Of a stretch of 64,000 nt of DNA, positions 56,531 to 62,018 are shown in pieces. Below the pieces are notes generated by a model. It did no database searches. It was given only the letters and a program-made list of their open reading frames with translations, and had not been told where the DNA came from. Both the position numbers and the translations under genes were made by a program. Numbering within the stretch: position 1 is the first letter of the stretch; every line of letters starts with the position of its first letter. Origin of the DNA: Phycisphaerales bacterium (lineage in GTDB: Bacteria > Planctomycetota > Phycisphaerae > Phycisphaerales > UBA1924); NCBI GenBank assembly GCA_029260455.1, contig JAJDDF010000011.1, positions 127,130-191,129 on the forward strand. The letters are read 5' to 3'.

Positions 56531-57550
56531 ATGAAGGTGACGGATCGAATGCGCGCATCGTTTGGCAGGGCCACGGTTGGAGCGTTGGCAGCACTTGTCA
56601 CGTTGACGCTCGTTCTTCTCGTCATGGGTCAGCAGCGCTCACACGCACAGGCAGGCGATCCGCCACCGGCGAATGCATTCCACCTGCCACCTACGTTCGA
56701 TCTTGATGGTGACGGGGCTGTTGATCTCATTCAAACCCGCGCTGCATACAACCGTACCGACCCGAGTCTCGGTGCCGTTGATGTTTTTTCATTGAGCACC
56801 CTGCAACGCTTGGTGACGTTCGGGAATTCTGGTGAGCTTGACGTATTCGGTATTGCCGCAGCCCCGGCGGGCGACATTGATGGTGATGGACGTGATGACA
56901 TCGTCATCGGCGCTCCACATGCGCTGCCGAATGGGACTCATGCAGGCCAGATTCACATCTACTCCGGTGCTACACATGCATTAATCCGAACAATCACAGG
57001 CCCTCACCCCTCTGCGCTGATGGGGCGCGCGGTTGCCGGGGCAGGTGATGTCAATGGTGATGGTGTGCCGGATATCGCGGCCAGCGGTTTCATCCCCGAT
57101 GCGAATCGCAATTCCATCGGGCAAGTCTATGTGTTCTCTGGCACCGATGGCGCACACCTTCGCACCTACACAGCATCATGGATTGATGACGGTTTTGGAT
57201 TTCGCATCGAATCGCTTGGCGATGTCGATGGCGATGGCATGGCGGAACTCGCAATCGCCGCAACGCTGTCGCCCGGAAATGTCGGCACGCAGGCTTCGGG
57301 TCAGTTGCTGGTATTCAACGGTGTGCCTGACAATCTACATTTCGAACTCACTGCTGCTGATGCCAATCAGACAATTTACTGCGATGAGCCGGATGTATTC
57401 AGCTTCGCCGCGCTCGTACAGCGCGTCGGAGATGTCAACGCCGATGGCCGCGACGATCTCCTCGTAGGTTCAGCATTCGATCCAGTTGCGCCGGGCGGTA
57501 TAGCGCTGATCGATACCATCGATATGGTCGGATTCATGGTGTGCCGATGA
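56531..57550 (+). CDS. FG-GAP (integrin-alpha-like) repeat protein, secreted or membrane-anchored
   Basis: GGAGGAG SD; signal/anchor FGRATVGALAALVTLTLVLLV; repeats GDIDGDGRDDIVIGAP, GDVNGDGVPDIAASGF, GDVDGDGMAELAIAA, GDVNADGRDDLLVGSAF; the start is internal to listed ORF 56204. Confidence 0.7.
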   Translation: MKVTDRMRASFGRATVGALAALVTLTLVLLVMGQQRSHAQAGDPPPANAFHLPPTFDLDGDGAVDLIQTRAAYNRTDPSLGAVDVFSLSTLQRLVTFGNSGELDVFGIAAAPAGDIDGDGRDDIVIGAPHALPNGTHAGQIHIYSGATHALIRTITGPHPSALMGRAVAGAGDVNGDGVPDIAASGFIPDANRNSIGQVYVFSGTDGAHLRTYTASWIDDGFGFRIESLGDVDGDGMAELAIAATLSPGNVGTQASGQLLVFNGVPDNLHFELTAADANQTIYCDEPDVFSFAALVQRVGDVNADGRDDLLVGSAFDPVAPGGIALIDTIDMVGFMVCR

Positions 57551-60500
57551 TGCGTTTTGCAATCTACGACTCTGCGACTGGCGTGCGCATCGAAGTACAC
57601 GAAGGGCTCGGCCTTGGTGCAGCGTCCGATGCGGATCACAACCTCGAAGTCGATCTCAACGATCTAACGCGAGTGTTGAGCTCATTCGGAGCGAGTGCGC
57701 CAGCGGGAGACCCCTTCAGCGGTGATGTGAATCAAAGCACCGCAGTTGATATCACCGACATTTCAGCGGTCATAAGCGCTTTCGGGCAGGTGAGCCCGGT
57801 GCTCAACCTCGCACGCGATCCATTTGGGCTGCTGAATCGCTGGTTTGAGCTCACGCCGCATCGGTTTGGTGTGGCAACCGGCGCGAACGCTGTTGCGTTT
57901 GATCCTACGGGCACAACCTGGCTTGCTGCTATGGCACCGAGCCCATTCTTTCCGGGATCTCGCGGTACCAATCTTGGGGGTGGTATCGCCGCGCGCGCAA
58001 CTGGCGGCGGGTGCTGTGTATGCAATAGCATCGGTTACAACGACCCGCCCTGCTGTACCGAATGCAGAGGCGGTGGTGGACCGCCCCCGTGCCCTCCTTC
58101 TGATACGAATTGTAACGGCGTAGATGATTCCATCGACTGTGCGTCAGAATTTTACGAGGGTTGGCGCGGCGACTGCGATGCAAACAACAACGGCATTCCA
58201 GACCATATAGACTGCGATGCGCCATTTTATGATAGCGGTATCCAGAATTGTGACAGCGATGGTGACGGAATTCCGAATCGGTTTGATCCAGATTGGCCAT
58301 TGTCGCCTCATGGAGATCATGACTGTTACACTTCGCAAGGTTGTGATGGCGTACCAAACTACTTAGATCCTGATTTTCCGTTCCGCGAACCAGGTGTGCC
58401 TCCGATAGATGGCCACACGCCGAATCCCGAAGGGGACGACAACGGTGACGGGCGCAAAAACAAGAATGATCCGTGGCATCCGGACTACGATAAAACGGAT
58501 CCTCTTTCAGATCCCGACCAAGATGGGATCCGCAACTACATCGATCCAGATGATGATGGTGATGGTACTAACGACATCTCCGATCCAGCGCCATATGTCC
58601 CCGCGCCAGGTAGTGGCGGTACCAATCACCCGCCACCTCCTCCGCCACCTCCTCCCCCGCCTCCGCCACCACCACCCCCAGAGAATGGCGGCAGTGGTGG
58701 TGGGCCAGGTACTTCTCAAATCTTCTTGCGCGCAGATTTCAACTTGGATGGCAACATCGATACGCTGGATGACGATGAATACAAGACGACTTATTTATTT
58801 ACAAATATTGACGACGACAATGGGAATGGCATCCACGATCATGCTGATCCCGGCCCAATAGACTATGTGGATGACGAGCTTCTCAAAATCCAGATTGTCA
58901 CGAATGGCAGCGGTGCGCAGTGGATACTGCACAAACCGGGAGGATGGCTCCCGGAATACGGTGAATTATCGCCGAAGATTTATCTTGCACCAAACAAGAC
59001 GGGGCAATTAGAGTACGGCATTGCATACGACTACCCTCCTCCGACATATATCTATATCGAGGATGACACTGGATTTACATACGGTTTTCTTGGAATTCAT
59101 AGCATCTCAAACTACAACGCCGATGGAAGCCCTGTTTTTGAATCTTCTAGCTTTATGTACATCATGCACGCTGCAGTTCATGTAATGGGTTTGAACGAAA
59201 AACTACTCGAAGTAAATGCGCAAAACCAATTACAGATTCTTGAGCACCCCGCCTACTCTCCACACAGATTCTACGACGGGGTCGCAGCCGATGGTGCAAG
59301 TGCTTGCGTAATATTGCTCAATTCACATAAACGGCAGCTTTTCAAATTCCCATATGGAACCACACCCCTTCCCCTCACACTAGAGATAGCCAAGCGAGGT
59401 GTGCCTACTGCATGCGAACCCACGATTGCAGGCTCACTTACGACGTTGCCAGAGATTACTCCCGACACCAACGATAACACCATTGTTCTCCCGCAGATTC
59501 CCACGCCTAAATCGGGCGAGCCCGGAGCTACTTCACTGGTTTCAACATGTGACTTCACGAAGGGAATGGCGCTTTACATTTCTCCTGAGTGCTACGCGGA
59601 TTCCATTTACAACTCCGGCTCGGTCTTGAACGGTGAAGAGACAGCAGAACTCATCTTGCGCGTCAAGTACGGAAACGTAATTGTTAACGAGCGATCTCTT
59701 GTGTTGCGGCGTCCACCCGTACTCCTGGCCCACGGGTTAGGGAGTAACCCGGCGACCTGGGATCCACAGATTTGGAATGAGAGCACCACACCACCGGGCT
59801 TGGCGACTCGGGTGTACAAACTGGATTATGAGGCCTTGAACAAGGCGGGGTATGACGCCATATGGCCAACGCTGTACAACATGACCGGGGCTATCCGCCT
59901 CATATATCGAACCGGACTGTACGACATATACGATTCCCGCTGCATCCTCCTGACGCGCATGGACTATGTTGGCCACAGTATGGGCGGACTTATTGCACGG
60001 CTACACATGTCGGACGTGACAACCTTCAATTCAACCTCCGGCACCAATACTCCGATTCTCCGAGACGCACTGGGCCGACCAGAACTTGGCGATTTTCACG
60101 ATCCGATCAGTTTGCCTCGCAACGAAGATCTCATGTACTTGTCACAACGGAACAACTTTGCAGGCGACTTTCGGCGTGTAATTACGATCGCAACGCCCTT
60201 TAACGGGTCGGCGCTTGCATACGCCGCAGAGGATGCCGAGAAGCTAAAAAATCTGGATTTGCAAGCACCGGATTATATAGGGGCGGCAGTAGATAGTGCA
60301 GTTGATTTCTGGAAACTAACGAATGATTTTTTGAGCAACCAGAACCAATACTACCGGCAAGGCTTGACTACCGGCAGTTCTTCGAACGCTACAACTCCAC
60401 AGGAGATGATAGTGCGCTATCACGAATATCTCGTGGAACAGGGTGTGAGCTATGAAGGAATCGAATTCCCTAATGCCTTTTTGGACTTGCAGCCGTCAAG

Positions 60501-60927: not shown

Positions 60928-62018
60928 ATCATCATCGCAATTACAGCCTATCTGCTTGTGTGGTGTTTGCTCTCGTGGCTGCCTCGACCGCAAGTTGCAT
61001 TGCGGCGACTATCCTGACAACTGTAACCGTCACTGTGCATGATTCTGTCGGGCAGCCTCTGCAAGATGTCCCATTGATGTTTGAAGGTTGGGGTGACTTT
61101 GCCTTTGGAATGACCGATGTGTCAGGGCAAGTCGTTTTGACAGTTGATCGTGAAGAACTCATTGACGAAACAGCGATCGTGCTCACACCTGGCATAGGAG
61201 TTGTGGATGGAGCAACTGCCAAGGCGCGGGAGGATCGCATCAACGTCTTGATGTCTCAGTATTCATTGCCCTGTTCAGTTTTGGTGACGTTTGCCCCGGG
61301 CGAGACCGCCAAGACAATTGATATCATCGCATACGATGCGATCGAAGTCACGGGGCAGCTCAAGACACCTGCGGGTGTGCCAATGTCTGGTGTGATCGAT
61401 CGACCTTACGGTCCCGATGGTGCGTATGCATACCCCGCCGCCGGGGGGGCCTTCACGTTACCCGGCGTGCGGAAGGATGTGAGTACAGCACTGGCGGTTA
61501 TGTGGGCAGGGAAGTTTGCCAAGGTCATCGAACTATCGGCCGCGCAAACGAGCGCCAATTTTGATGTTGGCGTGATCACTGCCGATGAGCCTGCGCTCGA
61601 TGCGTCGCTGAGCCTGGAGGTATTTCGTCCCGTTACGACTGACCTTAGCGGAGAGCGCAATGCGTTTCTCGTCTCGATTGTTCGAGATGATGGCTCTCTT
61701 GCGATGTTCTTTAGGACGACTATGGAGGATCCGCAAAAGCTGAGCGAGTTCGCAATACCCCTCATTCCTACGCCCGGTGTTGTTCCGGAACCCCCGGTTG
61801 CCATTCCAGCAGGTACATATTATGTCACGCCCGGAATACCAAGCAGGCCGACCGCAACGGCTCTCGTCCGTGCGCTCATGGACGGCCGCGGCGCGGTATT
61901 AGATGTAGCGGGTGTGCCTAAATTTACTGTACTAGCAGGACAAACAGCTACTGTGGTCATTGACGCGGAGCAAGTGATGCAGGCCATTCAGTCTGTTGCT
62001 GGCGATCTTACTGAGTGA
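60924..62018 (+). CDS. Secreted beta-rich hypothetical protein (carboxypeptidase-regulatory-like N-domain?)
   Basis: ATG overlaps the stop of the large gene (ATGA); signal peptide LSACVVFALVAASTASCIAA; TVTVTVHDSVGQPLQDVPLMF; start is internal to listed ORF 60903. Confidence 0.55.
   Translation: MNHHRNYSLSACVVFALVAASTASCIAATILTTVTVTVHDSVGQPLQDVPLMFEGWGDFAFGMTDVSGQVVLTVDREELIDETAIVLTPGIGVVDGATAKAREDRINVLMSQYSLPCSVLVTFAPGETAKTIDIIAYDAIEVTGQLKTPAGVPMSGVIDRPYGPDGAYAYPAAGGAFTLPGVRKDVSTALAVMWAGKFAKVIELSAAQTSANFDVGVITADEPALDASLSLEVFRPVTTDLSGERNAFLVSIVRDDGSLAMFFRTTMEDPQKLSEFAIPLIPTPGVVPEPPVAIPAGTYYVTPGIPSRPTATALVRALMDGRGAVLDVAGVPKFTVLAGQTATVVIDAEQVMQAIQSVAGDLTE

Follow-up and report, generated by a model that had tools for sequence, protein, structure and literature searches.

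The gene for a family I lipase in Burkholderia or Pseudomonas aeruginosa is followed by a gene for Lif, a membrane-anchored protein of roughly 340 amino acids, and lipase effectors (Tle) of type VI secretion systems are paired with periplasmic Tli immunity proteins. Here, we describe a locus in which a lipase-like hydrolase gene is followed by the gene of a partner protein of a different kind. It occupies positions 56531–62018 of a 64,000-nucleotide stretch of DNA from a Phycisphaerales bacterium, referred to below as the window (assembly GCA_029260455.1, contig JAJDDF010000011.1, positions 127,130 to 191,129 of the forward strand). Three plus-strand open reading frames (ORFs) are present in the ORF list at 56531–57550 (ORF1), 57541–60927 (ORF2), and 60924–62018 (ORF3), with alternative TTG starts at 56204 (the longest for ORF1) and 60903 (ORF3), and an ATGA overlap is found at both junctions (57547–57550 and 60924–60927). 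The original prediction, made from the sequence of the stretch, was a three-gene operon; the three frames and both overlaps stand, but ORF1 and ORF2 appear to be the halves of one ancestral gene. We consider it likely that the locus consists of two genes, not three, where gene 1 (56531–60927) is broken by a frameshift and gene 2 spans 60924–62018. In the following, related proteins carry P numbers and related loci L numbers.

The lipase-like hydrolase and its partner

The C-terminal part of ORF2 (residues 721–1128; 59701–60924, plus strand) is a lipase-like α/β hydrolase with a Ser-Asp-His triad and a long helical insertion. In alignment A1, which comprises window residues 576–1128 and 12 relatives, the His731-Gly732 pair (59731–59736), Ser813 in a GHSMGG motif (59977–59979), Asp1059 in G-D-x-V-V (60715–60717), and His1084 in T-x-H-S (60790–60792), all encoded on the plus strand, are invariant. 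The GHSMGG nucleophile elbow and the HG oxyanion motif that had been read from the sequence are therefore both confirmed as invariant features of the family. Ser813 is invariant in 13 as well as in 41 sequences, and Asp1059 and His1084 are at least 90% conserved in alignment A5; the triad follows the order Ser-Asp-His, and the core has the α/β-hydrolase fold. An AlphaFold2 model of the domain has a predicted template modelling score (pTM) of 0.70 and a mean predicted local distance difference test score (pLDDT) of 61, with values of 70–88 in the core, whereas the helical insertion is modelled poorly. Its best structural neighbours include the family I lipases of Burkholderia and P. aeruginosa, and a profile search of PDB sequences returned the same lipases as fold neighbours, with weak E-values of 6e-5 to 0.01. 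Compared by sequence, ORF2 showed no meaningful similarity to solved structures, and no match in NCBIfam. Abhydrolase_6 (PF12697; 20.9 against a cut-off of 26.3) and PGAP1 (PF07819; 18.6 against 24.3) score below threshold on ORF2. Of the earlier label, PGAP1/lipase-like, the second half is retained, since the domain is a lipase-like serine hydrolase whose nearest structures are bacterial lipases, but PGAP1 is reached at sub-threshold level only. The catalytic domain itself is of an ordinary kind among α/β hydrolases.

The conserved partner is the most interesting feature of the locus. Gene 2 (60924–62018, plus strand) encodes a secreted, probably lipid-anchored protein of 364 residues, with a signal peptide ending in a lipobox-like ...TASC, and most members of its family have a Cys residue at this lipobox-like position at the end of the signal peptide. 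Three β-sandwich domains are predicted in an AlphaFold2 model (pLDDT 78.7, pTM 0.74), and searches of Pfam and NCBIfam gave no family match. Homologues with 21–32% identity are found directly downstream of the hydrolase gene in six of the seven related loci (L001, L002, L003, L004, L049, and L050); in the seventh, L051, a gene starts at the same place and the contig ends 66 nucleotides after the start codon. The hydrolase/partner junction reads ATGA in the window and in all seven of these loci. Among the matches listed, 45 loci with only distant PGAP1-like hydrolases contained no ORF3 homologue.

In the window, the coupling junction (60909–60927, plus strand) features a GGAG element within conserved W-Q-G-D codons, 11 nucleotides before the ATGA that provides both the stop codon of the hydrolase and the start codon of the partner. 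The conserved C-terminal W-x-G-D codons in several related loci similarly give a GGAG about 10 nucleotides upstream of ATGA. A W-Q/K-G-D-[IL] motif is encoded by ...TGGCAAGGAGAT... at 60903–60927 in the window and at the junctions of L001, L050, and L051, where TGGCAAGGAGAT places the Shine-Dalgarno-like GGAG element 10–12 nucleotides before the ATG of the partner. This motif of the hydrolase may restrict changes in the ribosome-binding site, and vice versa. Co-expression, as first proposed for all three frames, is supported for the large gene and ORF3 by the recurring ATGA and downstream partner, but the ORF1/ORF2 junction is not conserved. Judged from the compared loci, the hydrolase/partner coupling is the only one that is evolutionarily conserved.

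According to the explanation we propose, the family order of modules in gene 1 is a Sec signal peptide, an FG-GAP β-propeller, a dockerin-like EF-hand pair, a Cys/Pro-rich spacer, Asp-rich and putatively Ca-binding repeats that resemble thrombospondin type 3 (TSP3) repeats, a Pro linker, a β-rich middle part, and the C-terminal hydrolase. A –1 frame change near 57.5 kb in the window separates the signal peptide and FG-GAP part from the rest, and gene 2 supplies a secreted, probably lipid-anchored protein that is translationally coupled to gene 1 through the conserved ATGA. The intact gene 1 protein would be exported by the Sec route and retained on or close to the cell through its N-terminal FG-GAP, dockerin-like, and Asp-rich modules of adhesion or Ca-binding type, such that the C-terminal domain could cleave an ester substrate, either a lipid or a polyester; outside the cytoplasm, the partner might then work together with the hydrolase or upon it, as an anchor, chaperone, or inhibitor. 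The product is built for an extracytoplasmic, and probably Ca-binding, life. What remains of the surface-tethered, Ca-dependent lipolytic or adhesive complex first suggested is thus the lipase-like C-terminus and the probably Ca-binding, extracytoplasmic build, but not a separate FG-GAP partner. More broadly, and with considerable reservation, the pair can be seen as a hitherto undescribed module of two components in Phycisphaerae/Planctomycetota, which mobile elements would sometimes carry. In this module, a Sec-exported, Ca-dependent surface lipase-like enzyme with N-terminal modules of adhesion type would be controlled by an obligately co-translated β-sandwich lipoprotein of a new type, either an immunity protein that protects from a self-damaging lipase or phospholipase deployed in competition between bacteria, or a chaperone or anchor other than Lif, and the window copy would have been recently inactivated or fissioned; taken as a whole, this is rather unlikely.

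Two more specific alternatives concern the role of the partner. The pair could be a toxin-immunity system, with an exported antibacterial lipase or phospholipase carrying variable delivery or adhesion modules, and the coupled lipoprotein as immunity protein, the pair travelling on mobile elements. A catalytic domain that is conserved behind variable N-terminal modules would agree with such a role, as would the obligate coupling to a downstream secretory partner with Cys ending the signal peptide in most members, and the genes that adjoin relatives: integrase, ParA, RES, and ArdC in L003, ArdC in L049, and SIR2/PIN-TPR with a recombinase in L004. We nevertheless regard it as quite unlikely. Equally doubtful is that ORF3, by analogy with lipA-lif of Pseudomonas and Burkholderia, might serve as a steric chaperone or anchor for folding or display of the lipase. 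The structural neighbours of the hydrolase include the family I lipases of Burkholderia and P. aeruginosa, and the locus also agrees in the order of the genes and the size of the partner, but ORF3 is predicted to be mostly β-sandwich rather than to adopt the all-helical Lif fold, and has no sequence match to any family in Pfam or NCBIfam. Should the partner be an inhibitor, an immunity protein, or a chaperone, the pair would represent a new way of controlling a lipase, and unusual esterases might be obtained from it. The interest of the locus is limited by the ordinary α/β-hydrolase nature of the catalytic domain, and by the window copy being probably defective.

ORF1 and ORF2 across the frame change

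ORF1 (56531–57550, plus strand), the 5' part of the split gene, starts with a signal peptide or transmembrane segment with a hydrophobic core from residue 21 (Kyte-Doolittle value 2.82), followed by FG-GAP repeats (PF01839; 93.9 bits against a cut-off of 22.1, E-value 4.6e-27, four stretches) that contain five D-x-D/N-x-D-G Ca-loop motifs, and is terminated by an out-of-frame TGA. ORF2 (57541–60927, plus strand), the 3' part, counts 1128 codons from GTG at 57541, with ATG codons at 57547 and 57550. It lacks a signal peptide; the maximum hydropathy over 12 residues is 0.95 within its first 60 residues, compared with 2.8 for ORF1 and 2.7 for ORF3. Its residues 1–20, RFAIYDSATGVRIEVHEG, resemble the last strands of an FG-GAP blade.

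The two frames correspond to consecutive parts of single proteins in the relatives. ORF1 is 39% identical over 279 residues to the N-terminus of the P0008 gene (1457 residues, locus L004). The closest word-index homologue, P0001, was found with the C-terminal 734 residues of ORF2 (full ORF2 with its low-complexity part gave no word-index match), and is a single chain composed of a signal peptide, FG-GAP, a dockerin-like pair, an acidic linker, the middle region, and the hydrolase. In a tblastn comparison, P0001 is colinear with the window, with residues 25–268 in the ORF1 frame, and 194–267 and 708–996 in the ORF2 frame. In the alignments with P0008, P0009, and P0015, the match lies in the ORF1 frame as far as 57484–57526 and in the ORF2 frame from 57559 on, which places a –1 frame change, for instance the loss of one or the gain of two nucleotides, within about 57485–57558 (plus strand). 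Both frames are open across 57388–57550, an overlap of 163 nucleotides, and upstream of ORF2 its frame continues as far as 57388 with no start codon.

FG-GAP was found at the N-terminus of the same polypeptide in 7 of the 9 top matches with domains examined, in 15 of 41 top members, and in 16 of the 150 listed representatives. All of the full-length relatives P0003, P0006, P0007, P0008, P0009, P0010, P0014, P0015, P0032, P0035, P0042, P0050, and P0052 (1000–1700 residues) have an ORF1-like FG-GAP part N-terminally, and in several full-length top matches the dockerin-like pair comes directly after FG-GAP and the hydrolase closes the chain. P0005 has no FG-GAP and carries a signal peptide of its own, and P0151 (L002) was called from an internal start, its frame continuing without a stop codon to position 164, near the contig start; the absence of an export signal in ORF2 therefore fits the loss of a natural N-terminus. 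As judged from these alignments, ORF1 is the signal-peptide-bearing N-terminal part of the same gene as ORF2. Its interpretation as a separate FG-GAP partner gene must be abandoned, given that relatives fuse this part to the rest and are colinear across the frame change. Gene-by-gene annotation would miss that the FG-GAP frame and the 1128-residue frame are one disrupted gene, and would over-interpret the first junction as an operon feature.

Three separate functional genes with coupled translation, the products of which would assemble into a surface complex, would account for the ATGA overlaps at both junctions and the possible ORF2 starts (GTG 57541, ATG 57547 or 57550), and no homopolymer of four or more nucleotides is present in the overlap zone. 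Other large ORFs scanned in the window match Pfam domains over their full length, which makes an assembly with errors throughout less likely and mildly favours a real change at the junction. Against three genes, no relative was found with a separate FG-GAP gene, the FG-GAP part being always fused, and ORF2 starts partway through a propeller blade and lacks an export signal despite its Cys-rich and Ca-binding modules of extracytoplasmic type; we judge this arrangement very unlikely. Programmed –1 ribosomal frameshifting, which could join the frames within their 163-nucleotide overlap to a product that would match the family architecture, is extremely improbable, with no X XXY YYZ slippery heptamer seen by eye in 57388–57550, all retrieved full-length relatives being single-frame across the junction, and a junction position that is not conserved.

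The frame change in gene 1 is due either to a real mutation, which would make the copy a pseudogene or the result of a recent fission, or to an assembly error. The overlap of stop and start codons between ORF1 and ORF2 is restricted to the window, relatives being fused at this point. A scan of metagenome contigs gave one distant relative with 29% identity, and no near-identical copy. Were ORF2 re-initiated at the ATGA, its product would remain in the cytoplasm; barring an artefactual frame change, the window copy as sequenced is therefore probably non-functional. A different frameshift is seen in L001 (JGI 3300078345), the closest metagenomic relative, where the hydrolase gene is broken into 540–3659 and 3544–4110 inside the catalytic domain, and the C-terminus with the Asp and His residues lies in another frame. 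Either long genes of this family often decay, or both assemblies contain errors.

Several points weigh against the two-gene reading and the function proposed for it. In the assembled sequence, an error of sequencing or assembly at 57.5 kb and a genuine mutation would look alike. The window junction holds about 14 more codons than in relatives, and a search for direct repeats at the junction revealed no DNA duplication that accounts for them. Moreover, because the ORF1 stop codon overlaps an ATG in the ORF2 frame (ATGA, 57547–57550), re-initiation could yield both halves, and a functional fission is possible. The mean pLDDT of the hydrolase model is only 61, all curated hydrolase, dockerin, and TSP3 models fall below threshold on ORF2, and substrate, localisation, and partner function are all inferred.

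Modules preceding the hydrolase and base composition

The first module of ORF2 is a dockerin-like, EF-hand-type pair (residues 21–90; 57601–57810, plus strand). Dockerin type I (Dockerin_1, PF00404) matches below its cut-off (19.4 bits against 22.9, E-value 0.0013), and only in the second half, but the pair aligns with the one that follows FG-GAP in P0001, P0003, P0008, P0009, P0014, and P0015. No cohesin is found among the Pfam matches of ORF3, where no search aimed at cohesins was made. A Cys/Gly/Pro-rich spacer (residues 158–185, GGGCCVCNS...PPPCPP; 58012–58095, plus strand) was read from the sequence and has comparable Cys/Pro-rich counterparts in P0007, P0010, and L002; the Cys-rich stretch noted earlier is real, with 14 Cys between residues 158 and 268. 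It is followed by Asp/Asn-rich, TSP3-like repeats (residues 186–350, 32% Asp and Asn; 58096–58590, plus strand), identified by a motif scan and putatively Ca-binding. ORF2 contains eight motifs of the form D-x-[DN]-x-[DN]-G-x-x-[DN]-x-x-D, six of these in residues 186–350 and two at 399 and 425. TSP_3 (PF02412) scores 11.9 bits against a cut-off of 25 and TSP3_bac (PF18884) does not match ORF2, and P0005 and P0006 exceed the TSP3_bac cut-off. The dockerin and TSP3 assignments consequently hold at the level of motif repeats and in relatives that pass, but not as Pfam scores of ORF2 itself, which are sub-threshold.

A poly-proline linker (residues 364–380; 58630–58680, plus strand) comes next, and comprises 17 residues, not 19 as first counted. 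The middle region (residues 396–575; 58726–59265, plus strand) begins with two DxDxDG-type motifs and forms the low-GC core of the gene. It gave no Pfam match at E ≤ 10 and is matched by only 4 of the 150 listed representatives. Residues 396–455 (58726–58900) share a pattern with P0001, P0003, P0006, and P0010, which runs [FL]xxADxNLDxN..., a hydrophobic strand, N-x-DDD-x-G-N/D-G-[IV]-x-D, acidic residues, and L-x-x-x-I. A likeness of residues 396–450 to the Ca-binding middle domain of peptidyl-arginine deiminase has no Pfam support and is not claimed. Between the middle region and the hydrolase, alignment A1 defines a β-rich module (residues 576–720; 59266–59700, plus strand) with G-A-x-x-DG-A/S, YVPP, and LRRPP motifs, conserved in 20 of the 150 listed representatives and modelled as β-strands with low confidence. 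Of the region of about 450 residues described as belonging to no recognisable family, the lack of a family match is confirmed for residues 396–575.

The lowest GC content in the window is found in the 59–60 kb bin (0.508, z = –2.5) and the 60–61 kb bin (0.515, z = –2.2), relative to a mean of 0.565 and a standard deviation of 0.022. Most of the drop arises from the first and second codon positions of the middle region, which is rich in Tyr, Ile, Asn, and Phe and has a GC content of 0.33 at position 2 in residues 396–560. GC at position 3 (GC3) is 0.539 in ORF2 compared with 0.52–0.55 in unrelated neighbouring genes, and the tetranucleotide deviation of the locus, at z about 2, is as large as in the GroEL region. 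Within the window, both this deviation and GC3 (0.71–0.74) reach their maximum in the GroEL region. The lower-GC island is thus real but modest, and composition alone does not show recent horizontal transfer of the locus, as had been suggested.

Relatives, surroundings, and comparison with described systems

At E ≤ 1e-3, an exhaustive HMMER search retrieved 270 cluster representatives, of which 60 reached E ≤ 1e-10 and 12 reached E ≤ 1e-30. None of the 270 is characterised, and no literature was found on this architecture, but with so many matching representatives the family is recurrent, and the uniqueness implied by the statement that nothing like it had been characterised does not hold. Nor is the combination of modules rare: Pfam matches among 41 top members include FG-GAP in 15, TSP3_bac in 10, Dockerin_1 in 8 (the latter two at E ≤ 1e-3), and Lipase_2 in 7, such that FG-GAP, TSP3_bac, and Dockerin_1 recur within the family. 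Named members derive from metagenome-assembled genomes (MAGs) of Phycisphaerales, Phycisphaeraceae, and Planctomycetota, and are annotated as "hypothetical protein" or "alpha/beta fold hydrolase"; distant matches include proteins of Thermoguttaceae MAGs. A protein search with the A1 profile gave one close member, P0151, in addition to distant PGAP1, DUF676, and DUF7379 proteins, and a scan of genome contigs with A1 (generic pattern DxVGHSMG) gave only distant PGAP1-like loci among the matches listed. The family consists of large secreted lipase-like proteins, found so far mainly in MAGs of Phycisphaerae/Planctomycetota, and is not unique to the window. It is now defined by at least 60 cluster representatives at E ≤ 1e-10 as a group of very large secreted lipase-like enzymes to which a partner is strictly linked, and belongs to a phylum for which knowledge of enzymes that are secreted or displayed on the surface is scarce.

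Some relatives adjoin genes of mobile type. L003 (JGI 3300033047) is flanked by genes for an integrase, ParA, a RES toxin, Gp49/HTH, and ArdC-N; L049 (GCA_020639235.1) has ArdC nearby; and L004 (GCA_041945975.1) has a SIR2/PIN-TPR gene and a serine recombinase. These neighbours suggest that the DNA around the pair is often variable or mobile, and that the pair is cargo of integrative or mobile elements. The window represents an ordinary segment of a bacterial chromosome, with flagellar genes, two GroEL paralogues, and SdhA and 5-oxoprolinase-type genes. No tRNA was found in 54–64 kb, and the flanking ORFs at 54751–55806 (plus), 62035–62328 (minus), and 62586–63512 (plus) gave no integrase and no other Pfam match. 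The flanking proteins of the window and of the related loci have no flank in common.

The N-terminus of the 54751–55806 product is signal-peptide-like. Overlapping the end of this ORF by 22 nucleotides, and just upstream of ORF1, is an orphan frame of 50 codons on the minus strand (55785–55937) that reads CAVNGSNTVDLLDIQDLIFDFGNGPGSDANGDGQTNLDDLQIVLFYFGTAC up to its stop codon and resembles a dockerin-type EF-hand pair; because another stop codon directly precedes it, the frame seems to be what is left of the C-terminal end of a gene that has decayed. At 62457–62474 (plus), about 440 nucleotides past ORF3, there is a strong hairpin with a T-run that resembles a terminator. The two GroEL (Cpn60) paralogues, at 19345–21123 and 22490–24103, are about 1.4 kb apart.

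The closest counterparts to the locus are other members of the family. MFB3429633.1 (P0008) and MCA9280898.1/MCB9842338.1 (P0009) have the same order of FG-GAP, dockerin-like pair, and hydrolase as the window, and their partners, MFB3429632.1 and MCB9842339.1, represent the same partner gene with the same ATGA junction. The identity to the window is 28–39%, and unlike the window copy, the P0008 and P0009 genes are intact single ORFs.

Beyond the family, ORF2 shares two tandem EF-hand-like segments and Asp-rich DxDxDGxxDxxD motifs with cellulosomal dockerins and TSP3 repeats, but its scores are sub-threshold and the first half of the dockerin-like pair is degenerate. The pair is also internal, following the propeller, whereas a cellulosomal dockerin is found at the C-terminus of the enzyme. 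Likeness to PGAP1-like proteins, DUF676 (PF05057), Lipase_2 (PF01674), and Abhydrolase_6 is in the form of local matches at the nucleophile elbow and strand 3; more distant relatives are annotated by these names, but the scores on ORF2 are below the cut-offs, and in contrast to PGAP1, the window locus offers no context of GPI-inositol deacylation. Compared with the bacterial lipases, the identity is only 16–20%, with sequence E-values of 6e-5 or worse, and the hydrolase differs by an approximately 100-residue helical insertion, by forming the end of a multidomain protein of roughly 1450 residues, and by having a partner that is not Lif-like. With the Tle-Tli pairs of type VI secretion systems, the locus has in common the succession of a lipase-like hydrolase gene and a gene for a periplasmic or lipoprotein partner.

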